The notes under the pieces are model-generated. The model was not told the DNA's origin. It ran no database searches and worked only from the letters and a program-made list of their open reading frames with translations. DNA of 64,000 nt from Bacteroidota bacterium (GTDB taxonomy: Bacteria; Bacteroidota; Ignavibacteria; UBA10030; UBA6906). Where the stretch lies: NCBI GenBank assembly GCA_040756745.1, contig JBFLYO010000003.1, positions 15,072 through 79,071 of the forward strand. The letters are read 5' to 3'. Below, in pieces: positions 19,980 through 47,572 of the stretch (position 1 is the first letter of the stretch; each line of letters starts with the position of its first letter). A program made the position numbers and the translations under genes.

Positions 19980-21695
19980 ATGCTCAAGTCTCTGTCCATT
20001 AGGAACTATGCCCTGGTGGAGGAACTCGAGGTCGAGCTCTCCAGCGGGCTGGTCATCCTCACGGGCGAAACCGGGTCCGGCAAATCCATCATCATCGGCG
20101 CTCTCAGCCTGCTCCTCGGTGACCGCGCGAGCAGCGACGTGGTGCGGAAGGGAGCCGAGAAGGCGGTCGTCGAGGGGGTGTTCCAGACCGCAGACAATGC
20201 CCGGCTCCGCTGGCTTATGGAAGAGAACGGGCTTCAACCGGAGGATGAACTGATTGTGAGGCGGGAAGTTTCGGCAAAGGGCCAGAGCCGATGCTTTGTT
20301 GCCGATTCTCCGGTCACGCTGGCGCTCCAGAAGCAGATCGGGGAGCTCCTTGTCGACCTGCACGGCCAGCACGAGCACCAGTCGTTGCTGCGTGTCGACA
20401 CCCATATCGCGATGCTTGACGATTTCGGCGGGCTGGACGGGATGGTGGAGGAGTTCCGGGGACTGCGGAAGAAGCTGAATGATGTGACCGCCCGGCTCGA
20501 GGAACTGCGCCAGCGTGAACGACAGCTTGCGGAAAAGAAGGAGTTCTACGAGTTCCAGATTCGCGAGATCGACGCCGTCGATCCGAAGCCGGGGGAAGAA
20601 GGTCGGCTGGAGGGGGAGCTGAAGATCCTCGAGAATGCAGAGAAGCTCTTCAGCGCGACGGGGACGCTCTATGGTCTCCTCTCCGACGGAGAACAATCGG
20701 TCCGTGATATGCTGGTGATCGTGCGGAACCAGTTGCAGGACCTGGCAGGGATCGACAAGGAGTTTGGCGAGGCCGCGCACGAGTGCGCCTCAGCAGAAGC
20801 AGTGGTGAGCGAGCTGGCCAAGTTCATCCAGTCGTACAATGCACGGATTGAGTTCAATCCCGAGCGGCTGGAAGAGCTCCGTGAGCGACTGGGACGTCTC
20901 GCGATGCTCAAGCGAAAATATGGCGGCTCCATCGAGAGCACGATCGCACACCGGGAAAAGATCGGGCAGGAAGTCCTGCTGGCGGAGAACTTCGGCGATG
21001 TGCTTTCCCGCCTCAGCACGGAACAGGAGGAGGCCCGGCAAGCCTGTGCGGCCGTTGCACAGCGTCTGTCCTCAAAACGCCACGATGTTGCAAAGAAGGT
21101 GGACAGGGCGATCGTCGGCGAGCTGGAAAAGCTCGGGATACGGAACGCGCGGTTCTCAACGCGCATCACCCAGGAGGAGATCGATGGAGCGGGAGAAGGG
21201 GTCGATTTCCTCCGGATGGGGCGCAAGAGTCTCCGGATGAATCCGCGCGGCTGCGATACCGTGGAGTTCTTTATCTCGACAAACCTTGGTGAAGAGGAAA
21301 AACCGCTCGCTAAGGTTGCCTCGGGGGGCGAGATCTCGCGCATCATGCTCGCGTTAAAAAGCATCCTTGCAAAGTCCGACCGGCTTCCCGTGCTCATATT
21401 TGATGAAATCGACGTCGGCGTGAGCGGGCGCGTTGCGCAGACGGTAGGCCAGAGCTTGAAATCCCTTTCCGGATTCCACCAGGTCGTGGCTATCACCCAC
21501 CTGCCGCAGATCGCGGGGCTGGCGGACACGCACTTCGTGGTTTTGAAAACTGAGCAGGGAAGGAGGACGGTGACGACCATGCGCCGGCTGACACTGGAGG
21601 AGCAGGTCGAAGAGGTGGCGCGACTGATGAGCGGCGCGGAGGTCACCGACGCTGGCTTACAGGGCGCACGGGAGTTAATGGGGCTGGAAGAATGA
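19980..21695 (+). CDS. recN: DNA repair protein RecN
   Basis: SMC-like N-terminus (LTGETGSGKSIIIGAL), long coiled coils and a C-terminal ABC signature region. Confidence 0.95.
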   Translation: MLKSLSIRNYALVEELEVELSSGLVILTGETGSGKSIIIGALSLLLGDRASSDVVRKGAEKAVVEGVFQTADNARLRWLMEENGLQPEDELIVRREVSAKGQSRCFVADSPVTLALQKQIGELLVDLHGQHEHQSLLRVDTHIAMLDDFGGLDGMVEEFRGLRKKLNDVTARLEELRQRERQLAEKKEFYEFQIREIDAVDPKPGEEGRLEGELKILENAEKLFSATGTLYGLLSDGEQSVRDMLVIVRNQLQDLAGIDKEFGEAAHECASAEAVVSELAKFIQSYNARIEFNPERLEELRERLGRLAMLKRKYGGSIESTIAHREKIGQEVLLAENFGDVLSRLSTEQEEARQACAAVAQRLSSKRHDVAKKVDRAIVGELEKLGIRNARFSTRITQEEIDGAGEGVDFLRMGRKSLRMNPRGCDTVEFFISTNLGEEEKPLAKVASGGEISRIMLALKSILAKSDRLPVLIFDEIDVGVSGRVAQTVGQSLKSLSGFHQVVAITHLPQIAGLADTHFVVLKTEQGRRTVTTMRRLTLEEQVEEVARLMSGAEVTDAGLQGARELMGLEE

Positions 21696-23140
21696 TCCAG
21701 GTGTACAATACGCTGAAGCGAACGCTGGAACCGTTCGTGCCCCTCCACGAAGGATTCGTCGGCATCTATGTCTGCGGCCCGACGGTCTACGGACACTCGC
21801 ACCTCGGTCATGCAAAAAGTTACGTCTCATTCGACGTCGTGGTCCGCTACCTCCGCGCGAGCGGTTTCAAGGTCCTCTACGTGCAGAACATCACCGACGT
21901 GGGGCACCTCACCGACGACGCAGACGAGGGTGAAGACAAGCTCGTCAAGCAGGCGCGTGCGGACCGTATCCATCCGATGCAGCTTGCGGAGCTGTACACG
22001 CGGAGTTACTTCGAGGACATGGATGCGCTGAACGTGATCCGCCCCGACATCGTGCCACGGGCGACAGGGCACATCACGGAGCAGATCGCCATGATCCGCG
22101 TGTTGCAGGAGAAAGGGCTGGCCTATGAAGTCCACGGGTCTGTCTACTTCGACGTGGAGAAATTCCCCGGATATGGGAAGCTCTCGGGACGCTCTGTCGA
22201 TGAGCTGAATGCGGGCGCGCGGGTGCAGGTCAACGAAGACAAGCGACACCCGGCGGACTTTGCGCTCTGGAAAAGAGCGGAACCGGGGCACATCATGCGC
22301 TGGCCAAGCCCGTGGGGTGAGGGTTTCCCGGGATGGCACATCGAATGCTCCGCCATGTCCATCAAGTATCTCGGAGACAGCTTCGACATCCACGGCGGCG
22401 GGCTGGAGAATCAGTTTCCTCATCACGAGTGCGAGATCGCGCAGAGCGAAGCCGTCACGGGGAATCCGTTCGTGCGGTACTGGCTCCACAACAATATGGT
22501 GACCGTCGACGGACGCAAAATGGGGAAGTCGCTCGGGAACTTCATTACGCTCAAGGATGCCTTTAAGAAATGGGAGCCGCAGGTGGTGCGGTTCTTCATC
22601 CTGCAGAGCCATTACCGGAGCACGCTGGACTTCAGCGATACGGCGGTCGAGGCGTCGGCGGCCGGCTACGGGAAACTCCTGAACGCGGTAAAGAACCTCC
22701 GCGATCGCGTCAGGACAGCGGGCAATGAGGGCGAGTCGCACGGCATCGATCTCACGCGGTACGCGACAGACTTCCAGGCCGCCATGGACGAAGATTTCAA
22801 CACGCCGAAAGCCATCGCTGCGCTCTTCGACCTGGCACGTGAGGTGAACCTCCTGCTGAGCGACGGCCGCACGTACGCGAAGGCCGGTCTGCGGGCGATC
22901 GAACAGCACTTCGATACCAATGCCGGTGACATCCTTGGACTGACGCTCGGTGCCGGGGAACAATCGGCGGGCGATGCAACCCTTGTGGCGTCGCTGATGG
23001 AGCTGCTCATCGGCATCAGGGCGGAGATCCGCGCGCAGAAACTCTGGGGACTCTCGGACAGGATACGGGACGGCCTGGCAAAGCTAGGGATCGCGCTCGA
23101 AGACAAGAAGACGGGGACATCCTGGAAAAAGGCTTCCTGA
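21692..23140 (+). CDS. cysS: cysteine--tRNA ligase
   Basis: HIGH-like ([14 protein letters not shown]) and KMSKS (KMGKSLGN) motifs, plus zinc-binding cysteines. Confidence 0.95.
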
Positions 23141-23277
23141 TACTGGCAGACGGGCTGGTCCTCACCTGCGACGGCACGAACAGGGGTGGGCGGCTCAGCC
23201 TTCTTATCCGCGACGGCCGGATCGTCGATATCGCCTCCGAGTCAGCCCCGTTCGCGTCGCTCTATCCCAATGCGCGT

Positions 23278-24645
23278 GTGGTCGACGCTTCCGCACACCT
23301 TCTCACTCCCGGGTTCGTCAACGTCCATTGCCACAGCGAGAGCATCATCCTCCGGTTTGTCACCGGACAACGCCCCTTTGCGGAGTGGCCCTCCCTTGCT
23401 CCTCTTCGGGAAGCAATTGCGACGCTCCGTTCCCCCGCAGTCGTGTCGCGCGTGGCGGAACTCTACACCGTGGCCGGCGTATACCACTTACTCGGCGGGA
23501 CTACGTCCCTCGGCGAATATCCCCTTCCCTATGAGCCGGAGGGAATCAACGCGACATTGACCGGCCTAGCACGCGGCGGTGTCAGACACAGAGTTGTCCT
23601 GCAGGAGTGGGAACAGATTGCCGCAGCGCGCGCCCGACCGGACGCGGCAACGTTGTTCACGATCTCGCTCGGTCCCGAAGAAGCATACACCGTTTACAGC
23701 TTCGAAAATCTCTTGCGTGCTGCGCGCGAGATCCAGTGCCCCCTGACGGCACACATCGGCGAACAACGACGGGAGACCGACACACTGCGGCGAAACTTCA
23801 AGAAAGCGCCACTCGCGGTCCTGAACGAGTTCGGTGCACTCTCGGCGTCAACCCAGATTCTCCATGCGAACCATCTGGGCGGCGCCGACCTTGATGCGGT
23901 GCGTGACGTGGACGGGACCATGACCCTCTGCGCCTGCTCGGGCGCGACGAAACAAACCGGGTATCCCGTGTTCACCCACCTGACGTCACACGATGTGCGG
24001 CTCAGTCTGGGGACGGACTGGGGGGTGGGGTCGATCCTCGGCGAGATCAAATTCCTCCGTGCCCTCCCGCAACTCGCACCGGGGGTTCGCCGCTTCCAAC
24101 CGACGGAATTGCTCCGCATGGGAACGATCAACGGCGCCCATGCCCTCGGGATCGCGCACCAAACCGGTTCGCTTGAGGTGGGGAAGAAGGCGGATCTGGT
24201 GATGTTCGCGCTGGATGATCTCCGGCTGCCTCCGTTGAGGCATTCCGCGACTTCCGCGGATCTCGCGTCTTTCCTGGTGGACCATATAGGCCCTGCGGCG
24301 ATCACCGACGTCATGGTGGACGGCAGGTTTCTCATCCGTAACCGGCGGCCGGGCAATCTCGACGAGGCGGAAATCAGACAACATGCACAATCACTATACA
24401 GCATGCTGGTATCGCACACGCCCATGGAGGAAGTCGTTCTGCGGGCAGTAAAATCTGATAGAGTATCCCTGGAAGAACCGAGTGCATTCCTCCGCGGCCC
24501 CCAGAGCTCTTCCCCGGATCCTGATCCCGCACATCGGGCGAACCTGGAACCCCCAACTGCCGCACCTCCTCCGGCACGCACATCACGCATGCCTGAACTT
24601 TCGCGCACCGTCAAGAAGGTCTTCGGCGAGGATGACGCGGGATGA
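23278..24645 (+). CDS. metal-dependent amidohydrolase (MtaD/SsnA/cytosine deaminase-like). The true N-terminus very likely extends upstream to about 23122-23143 without a canonical start codon
   Basis: HxH (VNVHCHS), a conserved His, and GKKADLV near the C-terminus. The in-frame upstream sequence [19 protein letters not shown]...LLIRDGRIVDI is the canonical amidohydrolase N-terminus but contains no ATG/GTG/TTG. Confidence 0.8.
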   Translation: MVDASAHLLTPGFVNVHCHSESIILRFVTGQRPFAEWPSLAPLREAIATLRSPAVVSRVAELYTVAGVYHLLGGTTSLGEYPLPYEPEGINATLTGLARGGVRHRVVLQEWEQIAAARARPDAATLFTISLGPEEAYTVYSFENLLRAAREIQCPLTAHIGEQRRETDTLRRNFKKAPLAVLNEFGALSASTQILHANHLGGADLDAVRDVDGTMTLCACSGATKQTGYPVFTHLTSHDVRLSLGTDWGVGSILGEIKFLRALPQLAPGVRRFQPTELLRMGTINGAHALGIAHQTGSLEVGKKADLVMFALDDLRLPPLRHSATSADLASFLVDHIGPAAITDVMVDGRFLIRNRRPGNLDEAEIRQHAQSLYSMLVSHTPMEEVVLRAVKSDRVSLEEPSAFLRGPQSSSPDPDPAHRANLEPPTAAPPPARTSRMPELSRTVKKVFGEDDAG

Positions 24646-25430
24646 GCGTCGCGTCGCGACACAAGCTCGGGTGTACAGTGGTTGCCGTGTGCCTGGCTGT
24701 TACCTCCCACCACGCTTTCGCACAGGGCTCAGCAGGCACAGCCGGCAAGCTTGAGCCGAGGTATCTCACCGACGTCCCGACTGCCGGGATGATCGATAAG
24801 GGAAATTTCGCGGTCGATATCGATTTCTACCGCGCGGGAGGCGTCCTCGTCGGATTCTCAGCCGGGATATTCAACCGCGTCAGCATGGGCATCTCGTACG
24901 GAGGGTCGAAGCTCATCGGCGGAGAATCGCCCGAGTTGAATGAAACGCCCGGCGTGAACGTGAAGATACGCGTGGCGGAAGAAGGGATGCTCTTTCCCGC
25001 GCTGGTTCTTGGCTTCGACTCGCAGGGGAAAGAGGGGTATATCAAATCCCTCAGCCGGTATGCGATCAAATCACCGGGGCTGTACGCGGTCGTCAGCAAG
25101 AACTACGCTGCGCTCGGCTACCTCAGTCTTCACGGTGGGGTGAACTACTCGTTCGAGCGTGCGGATGGCGATAAGGATCCGAACGTGTTTGTCGGCCTCG
25201 AAAAGACCATCGGACCGATCGTGTCGATGACGGTCGAGTACAGCCTCGGGCTGAACGACAACGGAGGTGACGCGATAGGGAGAGGAAAAGGGTACCTCAA
25301 TGCCGCACTGAAAGTGACTCTCGGCAGCGGCCTGACGCTCGGCGTGAACATGAAAGACCTCCTGAAGAACGGAGAGGATCTGAACATCGCCAACCGGACC
25401 GTGCACATTGAATTCTCAAAGCCCTTTTAG
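24642..25430 (+). CDS. outer membrane beta-barrel protein, function unknown
   Basis: Signal peptide (…HHAFAQGS), alternating beta-strand pattern and C-terminal aromatic (…SKPF). The start overlaps the upstream stop (ATGA). Confidence 0.5.
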   Translation: MSVASRHKLGCTVVAVCLAVTSHHAFAQGSAGTAGKLEPRYLTDVPTAGMIDKGNFAVDIDFYRAGGVLVGFSAGIFNRVSMGISYGGSKLIGGESPELNETPGVNVKIRVAEEGMLFPALVLGFDSQGKEGYIKSLSRYAIKSPGLYAVVSKNYAALGYLSLHGGVNYSFERADGDKDPNVFVGLEKTIGPIVSMTVEYSLGLNDNGGDAIGRGKGYLNAALKVTLGSGLTLGVNMKDLLKNGEDLNIANRTVHIEFSKPF

Positions 25431-25617
25431 CGTTGTAAACACAGGAAGGGCGCTGTGCTCTTAAATGAACGGTCGGTCGATAGGTGTCCAAAAATATGCA
25501 CATGGGAGAGCGCAACTCCTTCTCCCTCCTCTATTTTCAGGGCATTCTGATGGCACCCTTCTTGCAAACAAATTGGATACACCCACCGGACGGTCTCTCA
25601 ATGGAGGAGAGAACGAT

Positions 25618-26481
25618 ATGAACGCCAGATATGCAGCGATAGTCCTTGTTGCGATGGGAGCCCTCGGCGCCATCGCGCTCACAGGTTGTTACACTCAGTT
25701 CGGCACTCTTACCGAAGACAAGGAGCCCGGGGTCACGTCAGAGCCGGAGGAGTACGGGGAAGGAGTGACAGACGAAGAGTATGCCGAGGCACGGCAGCGG
25801 TTTTACTATGATTCGTATTATCCTGCTATCGATGTCGGGTTCTCGTTTGGGTGGGGCTATCCCTGGTACGGCTACCATCGTCCATGGTACGGCTACGGAT
25901 TTGGCTCCCCCTGGTATGGATACGGGTATCCCTGGTATTACGACCCGTTCTATTATGGCAATTACTATGGAGTCTATTCTCCATGGTACGTCGGGCCCTT
26001 CTACCGCGGCGGCTATTATTCTGATAGGGCACCGAGTGTGAACACGACCCGGAGGATCGGATCGACGAGGACGCTCGGCGGGACGCGCGGTTCCACGGAT
26101 TATCGGGGGACCTCCACCGAGTTCGCTCCGCTTCCGACGGGGAAGAGATCGAGTGGCACGGTGACCACGGGCTCATCCGCGCCGACGTCGGGCGGTCGGT
26201 CAGGGGTGAACACGGGCCGCAGGGGGACGGCGGGGGAGCGGCGGGATGGATCGCAGGGGCGCACGGTCAGCACTCCCCCAAAGGGAGGTTCGCGTGAGCA
26301 AGCGGCTCCTGCACCTTCTTCCGATACGCGACGAGGAAGTTCGGGTGGAAGCAGGACGCCGTCGTACACTCCACCACCTTCTTCTCCTCCTCCCTCAAGC
26401 GCTCCTTCTTCGGGGGGCAGCCGTGGCGGTGAAAGTCGCGGCGGAAGCGGTGGAGGCAACAGGGGCGGCGGCCGGCGGTAA
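25618..26481 (+). CDS. lipoprotein with Tyr/Trp/Gly-rich aromatic repeat block (PWYGY-type) and Ser/Gly/Arg/Pro-rich disordered tail
   Basis: RBS GGAGG before the ATG at 25618 and lipobox LTGC. The aromatic block is GWGYPWYGYHRPWYGYGFGSPWYGYGYPWYYDPFYYGNYYGVYSPWYVGPFY. The C-terminus is RGG/SGG-rich. Confidence 0.55.
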   Translation: MNARYAAIVLVAMGALGAIALTGCYTQFGTLTEDKEPGVTSEPEEYGEGVTDEEYAEARQRFYYDSYYPAIDVGFSFGWGYPWYGYHRPWYGYGFGSPWYGYGYPWYYDPFYYGNYYGVYSPWYVGPFYRGGYYSDRAPSVNTTRRIGSTRTLGGTRGSTDYRGTSTEFAPLPTGKRSSGTVTTGSSAPTSGGRSGVNTGRRGTAGERRDGSQGRTVSTPPKGGSREQAAPAPSSDTRRGSSGGSRTPSYTPPPSSPPPSSAPSSGGSRGGESRGGSGGGNRGGGRR

Positions 26482-26520
26482 TGCATCAGTGCACCCTCTG
26501 CTCTTGACACGAGGACGACA

Positions 26521-27948
26521 ATGAAACGATCAGTTGTTGCAGTAGCACTCGTTGCCCTGCTGGGGGGTTCCGCGCAGGCGCAGTTCCCCGAAGACGCTCT
26601 CCGGTTTGCGACGCCCGGGCTGGGTGTCGGTGCGCGGGCGATCGGCATGGGCGGCGCGTACACCGGCGTTGCCTCCGACTACAGCGCCATCTTCTGGAAC
26701 CCGGCGGGTCTGGCACAGGCGACGTACGGCGAATTCTCCGCCGGGCTGTCCTATGCGGCGAACGACAACACGAGCTCCTTCTTCAACGCCCAGCAAGGAT
26801 TCTCCACCAACGCCACAAACCTCAACACACTGGGGATTGTGCATCCCCTGCCGGTCCGACGGGGGAGCGCGGTCCTCGCGTTCGGCTTCCATCGGCAGAG
26901 CTCGTTTGCGAATGGCGTCTCCTTCTCGGGATTTAACGGCAACAGCTCCATCATCCAGACGTTTGCGCCGGACGGCGGCTTCTATCCTTCCGATCTGTCC
27001 GGCAATGTCGCCTATCAACTCTATCTTGCGAACCTGGATACCACGACGGGCAGGTTCGACAGTCCCATCAGGGACCGTCTGACACAGATCGGCAAGGTCG
27101 TGGAAGGTGGAGGGCTGAACAACTGGTCGATCGCCGGCGCAGTGGACGTGGCGAAGAACTTCGCGGCCGGGATGACGCTGACCTATCTGGGAGGGAGCTA
27201 CCGGTACGACAGGAATTACCGGGAAGAGGATACCCGTGGTGTCTACCAGGCGTTCCCGTTCGATTTCTCCTCAATGACGCTGGACGATTTCATTGAGAGC
27301 GACATCGCGGGATGGAATGCGAAGTTCGGAATCATGTTCCGGGAAGAGAACCGCTTCCGTATTGGATTTGCGGTGAGAACTCCCACAGAGTTCACCATCC
27401 GGGAGAAATTCGGGACGACCGCGCGCAGCTACTTTGACAACGGCGATATGAGACCGGCTGATGCCCCGTTCAACACAGAGTTTTCGAGCGAATATGACGT
27501 TGTGACCCCCTGGGTACTCAGCGGAGGAGTCTCGGTGATCATCCGGGACCTCGTGCTCTCGGGCGACGTCGAATTCACCGACTGGACTACGCTGGAATTC
27601 CGCAAAGCGAATTCCGACGTGATGGCGCAGAACGCGGACATGAAGACGATCTTCCAGCCGGCGGTGAATTACCGGGCCGGCGCGGAATTCGACATCCACG
27701 ATATCGGGCTCAGGCTCCGTGGCGGATTCGTCTATAACAAGTCTCCCTTCCGCAGCGACCCCGTCTCCTTTGACCAGAAGTATATCACCGGAGGGCTGGG
27801 AATCCTTGTGGGAGAGTCGACGATGATCGACATTGCGTATGCGCGGGGCTGGTGGGAGACCTTCGTGTACAATTATAACGCGACGTCGCGCGTGAACGAA
27901 TCGATGAAGACAAACACATTCATGCTGACGCTGACGCACCGCTTCTGA
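26521..27948 (+). CDS. FadL/PorV-like outer membrane beta-barrel protein
   Basis: Signal peptide. The N-terminal conserved block GMGGAYTGVASDYSAIFWNPAGLA is typical of FadL/TodX/PorV-like barrels. The terminal residues …THRF end in Phe. Confidence 0.6.
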   Translation: MKRSVVAVALVALLGGSAQAQFPEDALRFATPGLGVGARAIGMGGAYTGVASDYSAIFWNPAGLAQATYGEFSAGLSYAANDNTSSFFNAQQGFSTNATNLNTLGIVHPLPVRRGSAVLAFGFHRQSSFANGVSFSGFNGNSSIIQTFAPDGGFYPSDLSGNVAYQLYLANLDTTTGRFDSPIRDRLTQIGKVVEGGGLNNWSIAGAVDVAKNFAAGMTLTYLGGSYRYDRNYREEDTRGVYQAFPFDFSSMTLDDFIESDIAGWNAKFGIMFREENRFRIGFAVRTPTEFTIREKFGTTARSYFDNGDMRPADAPFNTEFSSEYDVVTPWVLSGGVSVIIRDLVLSGDVEFTDWTTLEFRKANSDVMAQNADMKTIFQPAVNYRAGAEFDIHDIGLRLRGGFVYNKSPFRSDPVSFDQKYITGGLGILVGESTMIDIAYARGWWETFVYNYNATSRVNESMKTNTFMLTLTHRF

Positions 27949-45414: not shown

Positions 45415-46428
45415 CTATCCTTTCTTCATGAGACGTATGGTCTGTGCCGCCTTGACGGCTTCGTTCGCGTAACTCCGGAGGAATTCGGATCGTGATCGTT
45501 CATCAAACGGGCCAGGGGGAAGAGCAAACCGATCCTCCCATCGGAATTCCCCATCGTGGCTTGGCGAGCGAAAGCCGGGGATTACTACCGCCACTGCGAC
45601 GCGCGCATAGCCCGGATAATAGAACACATCATTATGCTCAAGGCCAGGGTCTTCCTGAGGGAGGATTTTGTCGAACAGCTTGTCGAACCGGACATACACA
45701 TTCCCGCCGGCATGCCAGAGCGCATTGCGGAATCGGCATGCCGCGTTAATGACGAACGTTGTGCTGTCGACAGCCCAACTGACATCTGCAATAGTGATTT
45801 GCGAAGCGATATTTTTCTCGATCCACTTTGTGAGTGTTGCTTTCATTGACGTGTTGTTCATCCATCGACGTATGGTCAGAAAAGCGACGGCATACTGTCC
45901 TTGGAGCCTGACGGTAAGCGCCCCCATTAAATCGTCTTCGATTACCTGTAGGGTGCCGGAGACCGAGGCAAGGTTTTCAGGCAATTCAGCGATCGTTGCG
46001 AGGCTGGAGGCGCCCGTGTGGAGTATTAGTGCACGAGCGTTGACCACATCTTCGTCCGGCACGCCGATGGCCTCAGGGGGGTTCGTCCCATCGAACCAGT
46101 ATTCACGCCCCGGCGTCTGCCAGTGAACGATCATGTGATTGAACTGGTTGAGGGCGACCGGCAGGCCGTCGAAGAAAGGATGACCGTTCCCGCGCCAGCA
46201 GAGGGCGAGATCGGGATGGAGACCCGCTATGCGCGCCATCACGACCATGAGCGTTGAATAGTCTTTGCAATCGCCGTACCGGTGTCGGAACACGAATGGC
46301 GCCGCATTCGGTATGAACTCGCCGCCGCTGAGGTATGCCTGTTCGTATCGGATGTTTGACTGGCAGTAGCGGGCAATTGCGAACATTTTCTGTTCGTCGG
46401 TCATCTGATCGCTCACAATCTCCTGCAC
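45415..46428 (-). CDS. transglutaminase-like cysteine protease domain protein (A2). It has no own signal peptide and is in-frame continuation of A1 after a TAA
   Basis: Transglutaminase-like core YGDCKDYSTLMVVMARIAGL with downstream His/Asp. The 51 in-frame codons upstream (46429-46581) read as protein but contain no start codon. Confidence 0.65.
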   Translation of the reverse strand: MQEIVSDQMTDEQKMFAIARYCQSNIRYEQAYLSGGEFIPNAAPFVFRHRYGDCKDYSTLMVVMARIAGLHPDLALCWRGNGHPFFDGLPVALNQFNHMIVHWQTPGREYWFDGTNPPEAIGVPDEDVVNARALILHTGASSLATIAELPENLASVSGTLQVIEDDLMGALTVRLQGQYAVAFLTIRRWMNNTSMKATLTKWIEKNIASQITIADVSWAVDSTTFVINAACRFRNALWHAGGNVYVRFDKLFDKILPQEDPGLEHNDVFYYPGYARVAVAVVIPGFRSPSHDGEFRWEDRFALPPGPFDERSRSEFLRSYANEAVKAAQTIRLMKKG

Positions 46429-46581
46429 TGCCGCCGCGATCTGATCGTCCGGTCGCAGCTTCGCGTCGATGGTGCTCAGGAACCATTCGCCGAACGCTCT
46501 CCAACTGTCAGGTCCCCGGCTGGGCGTGATCGCATAGAGACGCGGAGCGGTGTCGTCGCTGGTAAAACGGTGCCGGGACGC

Positions 46582-47250
46582 TTACCGCTGTACATTGTGC
46601 CAGTCAAACCGATAGAGTGTCGAATGTTCGCTCCTGAGGACAGACGGGACAGTCCCGAGCGTGTCGTTGACGAGCCGGGCGATCACTGTATCCCCGGGCG
46701 GAACTTCCATGAGGCATGATGCATGGAGTACCCCGTCCCCCGCGTCTGCAGGCGAGAATGATACGCCAAGTTGCGGTAGTGCGAGGCGATGTTCGGAAAC
46801 GAACTCGACGAGGTCGCCCGATCCCGGCACGCGCTCAAGTCTGACGCTTCTGGAGAGCCGCTGCGAAATGACAATTCGGTTGCTCAATGTGCTCGAGGCG
46901 AGGTCGCTCAGGTCATAGGACTCCAGCGAGCCGTCGGCGTGTACGACGCGCGCCTCGTAGCCGGTCAGTTGCACCATGGAGCCATCCTCCACCGACAGGG
47001 TGCTGAATGTGCCCGCCGATCCGACTCGTATGATCCTGTGCGTGCGCAGTGTCGCAGCTCCCGTCCGATCATAGCGATAGTGTTCCTCGTGGAGCCGGAT
47101 CTCATCCTCCTGATTGCCAATTCCCTGGACTGCCTGCGGGGGAGGATCTGTCAGGAAACGATACCCTCCACAGCCGGGTAAGGAAAGGAGAAGGATGAGG
47201 CCAAGGGTGAGGATGTGAAGAATGGTGCGGATGAGCGGAGAGGTCATCAT
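46582..47250 (-). CDS. DUF3857 domain lipoprotein (A1)
   Basis: The start was chosen at MMTSPLIRTILHILTLGLILLLSLPGCGG (lipobox LPGC). A DUF3857-like region ends in the aromatic motif …LYRFDWHNVQR, followed by a TAA stop. Confidence 0.6.
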   Translation of the reverse strand: MMTSPLIRTILHILTLGLILLLSLPGCGGYRFLTDPPPQAVQGIGNQEDEIRLHEEHYRYDRTGAATLRTHRIIRVGSAGTFSTLSVEDGSMVQLTGYEARVVHADGSLESYDLSDLASSTLSNRIVISQRLSRSVRLERVPGSGDLVEFVSEHRLALPQLGVSFSPADAGDGVLHASCLMEVPPGDTVIARLVNDTLGTVPSVLRSEHSTLYRFDWHNVQR

Positions 47251-47572
47251 GCCGTCGCTCCTGAGTACGGGGAAACTTGTTATGGAAAAAACGGACTGCT
47301 CCCGCAGTGGATACCACTGCCGAGCATGTGGAGGCCGGGACCACACGTTCTCGCGCCGGGGGAGTTACAGCAAATGGCGCGTCAGGTTGCTACGAATCAA
47401 ATGGGAGAGCAGAATGCTGCAGCAGAATTACAGCGTCCGGCTTGCCGGGGGGTCGGACGCCGCAAAGACAACTCGCCGCAGAAAAACCACAGTAGAAGAT
47501 ACACCGCTCAGCAATTACTGTCAAGACGGAGCGGGATTATTCTGTCGATGTCACCCATGTCGGGATTCTTCA

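Follow-up and report, generated by a model that had tools for sequence, protein, structure and literature searches.

Near-cognate start codons can be kept by selection: infC starts at AUU, which lowers or tunes its expression, and its product, IF3, discriminates against its own AUU. CTG is the verified start of two chromosomal genes of Escherichia coli, hda and yfjD (EcoGene 3.0, PMC3531124). In the case of yfjD, a canonical codon further downstream had been annotated, and sequence conservation revealed the true start (PMC3531124). Here, we describe an amidohydrolase gene that probably starts at CTG in an uncultured Bacteroidota bacterium. The gene overlaps the 3' end of cysS, which encodes cysteinyl-tRNA synthetase (CysRS), and lies in a 64,000-nucleotide (nt) stretch of contig JBFLYO010000003.1 (hereafter the window, from whose first letter all positions are counted). 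Bacterial CTG starts being already known, what stands out in this case is the fixation of the codon in a deep clade, its embedding in cysS codons and the systematic truncation of the encoded proteins in databases.

The start-less frame and its annotated start

In the amidohydrolase frame, the first stop that is met upstream of GTG 23278 is TGA 22927-22929, so that the open stretch begins at 22930; it contains no ATG, GTG or TTG as far as 23277. An earlier note on this DNA had described this open, start-less frame, its translation and the cysS stop at 23138-23140, and we found all three as it had read them. The note had further proposed that the start is non-canonical, with ATC 23122, CTG 23125 or ATA 23140 as candidates; the ATA is correctly placed, and the other two really lie 3 nt upstream, at 23119 and 23122. 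The near-cognate codons considered in this frame are ATC 23119-23121, CTG 23122-23124, CTG 23137, ATA 23140 and CTG 23143. The features that bear on the choice between them are the following.

21692 to 23140, plus strand: cysS (cysteinyl-tRNA synthetase), full length, with its stop TGA at 23138-23140
23122 to 24645, plus strand: proposed full amidohydrolase coding sequence, 507 amino acids plus stop, read from CTG 23122
23122 to 23140, plus strand: 19-nt overlap of cysS and the amidohydrolase gene, the latter in the -1 frame relative to cysS
23122 to 23124, plus strand: CTG, proposed initiation codon, made up of the wobble base C of the cysS Ser codon TCC (23120-23122) and the TG of the Trp codon TGG (23123-23125)
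23125 to 23131, plus strand: G_AAA_AAG, read in the cysS frame; it resembles a -1 slippery site of the dnaX kind, but we judge it to be no recoding signal
23134 to 23136, plus strand: TTC, the amidohydrolase codon for Phe5, whose first T doubles as wobble base of the cysS codon GCT (23132-23134)
23141 to 23277, plus strand: start-less N-terminal coding segment free of the cysS overlap, codons 8-52
23278 to 23280, plus strand: GTG, the first canonical and annotated start, an internal Val53 of the proposed protein

The public annotation of the contig (P0001, 455 amino acids, NCBI 'MAG: Bacteroidota bacterium') starts at GTG 23278. This is an artefact: gene callers recognize no start codon other than ATG, GTG or TTG. 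As the earlier note had argued, reading from the GTG removes the N-terminal beta-sandwich. In an AlphaFold2 (AF2) model of residues 1-507, counted from CTG 23122, the part before residue 53 comprises strands 5-14, 22-30 and 33-38 and helix 42-47; the mean predicted local distance difference test score (pLDDT) of the model is 89.3, with residues 11-60 at 93-97. The alignment to the NCBIfam profile PRK08204 begins with the Ile encoded at 23140, which falls on profile position 6. In a phmmer alignment to the solved homolog 4f0r, residue 26 of the query pairs with chain residue 29, so that a start at 23122 gives an N-terminus of normal length.

Conservation of the N-terminus and position of the start

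We fetched locus DNA for homologs with ragged, shortened N-termini in the databases. Eleven distinct loci (the window, L081, L082, L084, L087, L089, L090, L096, L097, L098 and L106) share the gene order recN, cysS, amidohydrolase and a gene for a protein of ~260 amino acids, together with the 19-nt overlap and an N-terminus of the form LEK.FLI..G..LTCD for which no canonical start exists. The amidohydrolases of the related CTG loci are 43-58% identical to the window protein, and in each CTG locus the gene callers had chosen a different downstream ATG, GTG or TTG. The same overlap geometry was found in three overlapping loci with canonical starts too. A metagenome scan with N-terminal alignment yielded at least five new loci of the family. 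A scan of genome contigs with full-length alignment, which settled on generic amidohydrolase motifs, returned only relatives of 30% identity or less, and a scan of viral contigs for the cysS tail pattern gave no match.

For codons 8-52, the proportions of nonsynonymous and synonymous differences (pN and pS) were 0.21 and 0.61, giving a pN/pS of 0.34 over 55 pairs, which is lower than that of the rest of the gene (0.49). Judged by this ratio, the start-less segment is under purifying selection and translated. This selection, and the ten further loci that are alike, support the proposal that the true N-terminus lies 5' of GTG 23278, and the 19-nt overlap common to all eleven loci supports its extension into cysS. 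The earlier note had also suggested checking the raw reads for a missing start or an indel; the same start-less N-terminus recurs in ten further distinct loci, and by this comparison it is neither a sequencing error nor a pseudogene.

The CTG loci form a monophyletic clade in 100 of 100 neighbor-joining bootstraps. In the family tree, the clade that they define holds 21 database protein clusters, all 21 of which are N-terminally truncated, with first residues that correspond to window residues 8 to 129. Outside the clade, 38 of 43 other sequences begin at residue -7 to +2 (5 of the 43 are loci read here). Some database entries (P0004, P0044 and P0048) appear to begin at V-D-A-S-A-H, a start that the earlier note had raised as a counterexample. 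Their starts were probably misplaced by gene callers for want of the same start codon, since all three fall in the clade where every annotated N-terminus is ragged; the gene coordinates of P0048 fit the same geometry (coordinates only, no DNA having been read for the three entries). Two proteins that lie outside the CTG clade in the neighbor-joining tree, P0024 and P0054, are likewise annotated with shortened N-termini, which begin at residues 13 and 29, and the gene coordinates of P0024, taken as coordinates only, fit the same 19-nt cysS overlap. The start-less state may extend beyond the clade or may have arisen twice.

Which codon is the start? In sister lineages with the same 19-nt overlap, GTG (L092, L094) or ATG (L099) stands exactly at the position of the CTG, and L093 and L100 have an ATG of their own after cysS. 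The start triplet is an NTG whose TG is supplied by the invariant CysRS Trp codon and whose N is the wobble base of the preceding Ser or Thr codon. In the clade, this preceding codon is TCC, ACC or AGC, with C as its last base in 11 of 11 loci, and of the near-cognate codons only CTG 23122 is shared by all the loci. We compared wobble positions across nine full-length clade cysS genes, which are ~70-83% identical for most pairs, and found 6 of 128 comparable columns, and 1 of 77 strict four-fold columns, to be invariant. With so few wobble columns invariant, the C of the CTG appears to be under constraint.

The cysS codon two before the stop (GCT, ACT, GTT or CTT) encodes Ala, Thr, Val or Leu, yet its third base is T in every one of the 11 loci. 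A T that is forced across four amino acids shows that Phe5 of the amidohydrolase is translated and that the start lies upstream of 23134, which excludes CTG 23137, ATA 23140 and CTG 23143 as sole start. In four loci (L089, L090, L097 and L098), no near-cognate codon other than the CTG occurs from the preceding in-frame stop to Phe5, and in L081 and L084 the frame is closed by a TGA 8 codons upstream. By position and conservation, CTG 23122 is the homolog of the start codon of the sister lineages: a near-cognate codon at the start position of the orthologs is kept among relatives, and the alignments indicate that coding sequence is conserved upstream of every ATG, GTG or TTG in the frame. The comparison thus supports the non-canonical start and narrows it to CTG 23122, where we infer that CUG itself is the initiation codon. 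A predicted hairpin at 23112-23139 (CGGG/CCUG, 4 bp) would sequester the CUG; its sequence is conserved, covariation is absent, and the hairpin is too weak to bear interpretation.

Competing explanations

As a whole, the data are best explained by an intact gene that starts at CTG 23122, with the CUG probably fed by ribosomes from cysS, a reading to which we assign a probability of roughly 0.78. Several points weigh against it: (i) the invariance of the C could partly reflect codon bias, as the third positions of cysS are C in 41% of cases (G 37%, A 10%, T 11.5%); (ii) the case for initiation at CUG is drawn from comparative sequence only; (iii) a weak start kept clade-wide is unusual, when a single cysS-silent change of the C to A, G or T restores a canonical start; (iv) a possible -1 shift site, TGG AAA AAR, occurs together with the CTG in 10 of the 11 loci read as DNA; and (v) the conserved 19-nt overlap, with the TGA 16 nt downstream of the CTG, is not among the typical termination-reinitiation spacings, which are -4, -1 and -8 (PMC12548453).

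Could the frame be entered with no start codon at all? Programmed -1 frameshifting at G_AAA_AAG 23125-23131 would produce a ~108-kDa CysRS-amidohydrolase fusion. The amidohydrolase does lie in the -1 frame of cysS in every locus, TGG is followed by AAA AAG or AAA AAA in 10 of the 11 CTG loci, as against AAA CGG or AAA AGG in the overlapping GTG and ATG relatives, and A_AAA_AAG is the slippery site of dnaX (PMC1851650). However, L106 keeps both the CTG and the conserved N-terminus with TGG AAA AGA, which is not slippery. This locus is the only one with a WKR tail that we read as DNA, and at the protein level such tails are common: ~13 of the ~33 CysS clusters that carry the tail signature of the clade (KKTGT.WK.xS), drawn from the 120 closest CysS clusters, are WKR and not WKK, and in a CysS tree built without the tail columns the two tails are interspersed in the clade, with at least seven independent switches. 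Despite the mixed tails, none of the 21 amidohydrolase clusters of the clade has a canonical N-terminus. The Lys-to-Arg change is silent in the amidohydrolase frame and varies freely, so that no slippery-site constraint is apparent. Conversely, L100 has TGG AAA AAG although its -1 frame stops immediately, and Lys-Lys is therefore simply a common CysRS tail. The heptamer of the window also mismatches in the P site, where the codon would have to re-pair on GAA. No conserved RNA structure was found downstream (fold z = -0.05; alignment fold -7 kcal/mol with 0 covarying pairs), and a Shine-Dalgarno (SD)-like stimulator upstream would act in a lineage that shows almost no SD use. No CysRS-amidohydrolase fusion occurs among 65 family representatives (E<=1e-30, longest 539 amino acids) or among 59 family clusters. 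Such a fusion would probably leave only 3 residues and no linker between the conserved CysRS Trp and beta-strand 1, and it leaves the invariant C of the CTG unexplained. The relatives appear to conserve no slippery heptamer of the form X_XXY_YYZ, and neither a stimulatory structure 5-9 nt downstream nor an SD-like element upstream was apparent; frameshifting is disfavoured by these comparisons and we consider it very improbable. The locus carries a caution, in that a dnaX-like AAA_AAG beside a start-less -1 frame mimics programmed frameshifting and fails the comparative tests. Transcriptional slippage, considered separately, was ruled out because the A-run of the window is only 5 bases long.

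A further possibility is that ATC 23119, CTG 23137, ATA 23140 or CTG 23143 serves as the start, either in place of CTG 23122 or in addition to it. In E. coli, AUA and AUC roughly equal CUG in initiation efficiency, CTG 23137 and the ATA or ATC at 23140 are conserved, and ATA 23140 overlaps the cysS TGA as TGATA, which resembles the common TGATG stop/start overlap. The strong selection on Phe5 speaks against the three downstream codons, however, while ATC 23119 is present in 6 of the 11 loci and replaced by CAC, AAC or GAG in the other 5, and the ATG and GTG starts of the orthologs align with 23122 and with none of the other near-cognate codons. We regard this alternative as unlikely, if a little less so than frameshifting. 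The least probable explanation is that GTG 23278 is the real start, and that the homology upstream of it is a decaying remnant, that the gene is a pseudogene, or that an ATG was lost to an error in reads or assembly. In its favour, no canonical start precedes GTG 23278 in the open frame, the public annotation uses this GTG, and the whole of the Pfam Amidohydro_1 match lies 3' of it. Against it, the same CTG is found in eleven independent assemblies from different samples, a pN/pS of 0.34 with a near-saturated pS would have to arise in a supposedly untranslated segment, the position of the first canonical start differs from one relative to the next, ranging from residue 8 to residue 129, and without residues 1-52 a domain modelled with confidence would lose three strands and a helix. 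The comparative data already contradict this explanation. A leaderless mRNA was ruled out on the ground that leaderless mRNAs need a 5'-AUG.

The amidohydrolase, its probable coupling to cysS and known systems

How would ribosomes reach a CUG start? The clade ancestor probably started the gene at GTG or ATG, which one cysS-silent substitution would have turned into a CTG that has been retained since; a single ancestral NTG-to-CTG change is indicated by the monophyly of the CTG clade. CUG 23122 would most likely be read by the initiator tRNA, giving Met-Glu-Lys-Gly-Phe-Leu-Ile-Leu and onward. In E. coli, initiation at CUG reaches ~1-2% of that at AUG (bioRxiv 10.1101/063800), and the ribosomes of Bacteroidia are blind to SD sequences (PMC6847099, PMC7797042). 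SD-like motifs are almost absent from gene starts in the window (for example 19980, 21692, 24642, 30430, 55917 and 60922). Because the lineage has almost no SD motifs and CUG is a poor start, the initiating ribosomes are probably those translating or terminating cysS. Such translational coupling is also suggested by the ATGA overlaps of the neighboring genes and by a promoter and terminator scan that found no signal between cysS and the amidohydrolase gene; it may feed the CUG, and low, cysS-linked expression of the amidohydrolase would result. Many adjacent genes of the window overlap as ATGA, an arrangement that fits SD-independent initiation and frequent coupling.

None of the 11 loci has reverted to ATG, GTG or TTG, even though each is one silent change away, which suggests selection for weak expression, with a contribution from codon bias; the weak start may itself have been selected for. 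A more far-reaching possibility, which we put forward tentatively and hold to be well short of probable, is that selection keeps the CUG because it ties amidohydrolase synthesis to cysS translation, as a hard-wired stoichiometric coupler built on a near-cognate restart codon. If so, a CUG placed 16 nt before the cysS stop in an SD-blind lineage would serve hardly any ribosomes but those fresh from translating or terminating cysS, and enzyme output would be low and in a set proportion to that of CysRS.

As a result of the restriction of gene callers to ATG, GTG and TTG, every database entry of the clade (21 of 21 clusters, including that of this contig) lacks 7 to 128 N-terminal residues, and structure predictions, expression constructs and family models derived from such entries would be defective. 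The locus is also a rare case in which comparative data indicate that a CTG start is fixed across a deep bacterial clade, one cysS-silent change from a canonical codon. Such fixation suggests that a weak or coupled start has been favoured by selection in a lineage without SD pairing, and the locus offers a concrete example from nature on which near-cognate initiation and translational coupling can be tested in Bacteroidota.

Within the window, the amidohydrolase is an exception and not the rule. We considered a genome-wide relaxation of the start-codon rule and rejected it after examining the 10 window open reading frames (ORFs) with the longest start-less 5' extensions that are unexplained by an upstream ATGA or GTGA overlap. 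In 8 of these, the Pfam domains begin after a canonical start; one has no Pfam match and one is ambiguous. The ambiguous ORF (45415-46581, minus strand) follows an in-frame TAA. From its GTG start, the ORF spans 45415-46428 on the minus strand and gives a Transglut_core match from the first residue; it is preceded in frame by 51 start-less codons and then by TAA 46584-46582, which ends ORF 46585-47346 (minus strand, 254 amino acids, no Pfam match). The region 45415-47346 on the minus strand could be one gene split by a stop, through pseudogenization or an assembly error, or two adjacent genes.

Further features of the locus are as follows.

21692 to 21695, plus strand: ATGA overlap of the recN stop and the cysS start
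23326 to 23334, plus strand: HxH metal-binding motif of the amidohydrolase (H69, H71)
24642 to 24645, plus strand: ATGA overlap of the amidohydrolase stop and the start of the downstream gene, which encodes 262 amino acids

The upstream gene encodes a cysteinyl-tRNA synthetase with a class I catalytic domain (Pfam tRNA-synt_1e, E=4.8e-116) and a DALR domain (DALR_2), and it extends to its native C-terminus, which aligns to the last residues of solved CysRS structures (461/462 in 3tqo, 460/461 in 1li5). The gene ends, in its own frame, in TGG AAA AAG GCT TCC TGA, with CTG 23122 placed 16 nt 5' of the stop codon. Rfam and tRNA scans gave no match at the locus. The order recN, cysS, amidohydrolase and ~260-amino-acid gene was seen in 16 family loci, as far as the fetched DNA extends. 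In the longer loci, a gene for a FadL/Toluene_X outer-membrane protein follows the ~260-amino-acid gene, except in L089 (window 19980-27948, L081-L106). The ~260-amino-acid protein has a faint YjbH match in some relatives and no Pfam match in its window copy. The amidohydrolase is persistently linked to cysS, a linkage known from gene order.

The amidohydrolase matches Pfam Amidohydro_1 (E=2.5e-28) over residues 68-409 of the translation begun at 23101. Foldseek matched the model to AtzA (4v1x) and to methylthioadenosine (MTA)/adenosine deaminases (4dyk, 4gbd, 4f0r) along the entire length of these targets, with E-values of 2e-27 to 1e-24 and TM scores on the target (TMt) of 0.75-0.85. Across 50 sequences, the residues H69/H71, H211/E214 (HxxE), H248 and D299 vary little or not at all. 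The predicted barrel and beta-sandwich fold and the metal and catalytic motifs place the protein in the TRZ/ATZ-MtaD-guanine deaminase branch. No named deaminase equivalog (MtaD, SsnA, guanine deaminase, 8-oxoguanine deaminase, HutF) reached its cut-off. The best NCBIfam score was 137 bits against a cut-off of 540 (PRK09045), and all 25 families listed of the 56 matched scored far under their cut-offs. The C-terminal tail, which the family shares (24415-24645, residues ~432-507), is of low complexity and has a pLDDT of mostly 41-64, with one short stretch at 87; within its motif KKVFGEDD, F501 and G502 are invariant in 50 sequences. Solved deaminase homologs are ~70 residues shorter, and their alignments end before the tail.

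Compared with known systems, the window protein resembles the TRZ/ATZ-MtaD-guanine deaminase branch in its fold match and its HxH, HxxE, His and Asp motifs, and its N-terminal strands complete the beta-sandwich. It differs from AtzA (4v1x) and from the MTA/S-adenosylhomocysteine (SAH) and adenosine deaminases (4f0r, 4dyk, 4gbd) in that identity is only 22-25%, and from solved deaminases in its extra disordered tail of ~70 amino acids, which ends in the invariant KKVFGEDD. As in -1 frameshifting of dnaX and the IS3 family, AAA_AAG stands in the upstream frame and the downstream gene lies in the -1 frame; in contrast to these systems, the motif of the window starts with G and not A, is not conserved, has no stem-loop or pseudoknot and lies 3 codons before the natural C-terminus of CysRS.

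In gene arrangement, the locus resembles coupled overlapping pairs of the ATGA/TGATG type (PMC12548453, PMC6728339) through its chain of co-directional overlaps, recN with cysS, cysS with the amidohydrolase gene and the latter with the next gene. It departs from them in an overlap of 19 nt instead of 4 or 1 and in CUG as the putative restart codon, the coupling here being proposed from the sequence. Like infC, the amidohydrolase gene appears to retain a near-cognate start codon by selection; what sets infC apart is its known regulatory logic. The closest parallels are hda and yfjD, bacterial protein-coding genes with CTG as their real start, a status that is verified for the E. coli genes and, for the window gene, inferred from sequence comparison. 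Unlike hda and yfjD, the CTG of the window lies inside the Ser/Thr and Trp codons of cysS, in a 19-nt overlap, and it appears fixed across a deep clade of uncultured Bacteroidota with CysS ~70-83% identical and no SD use.

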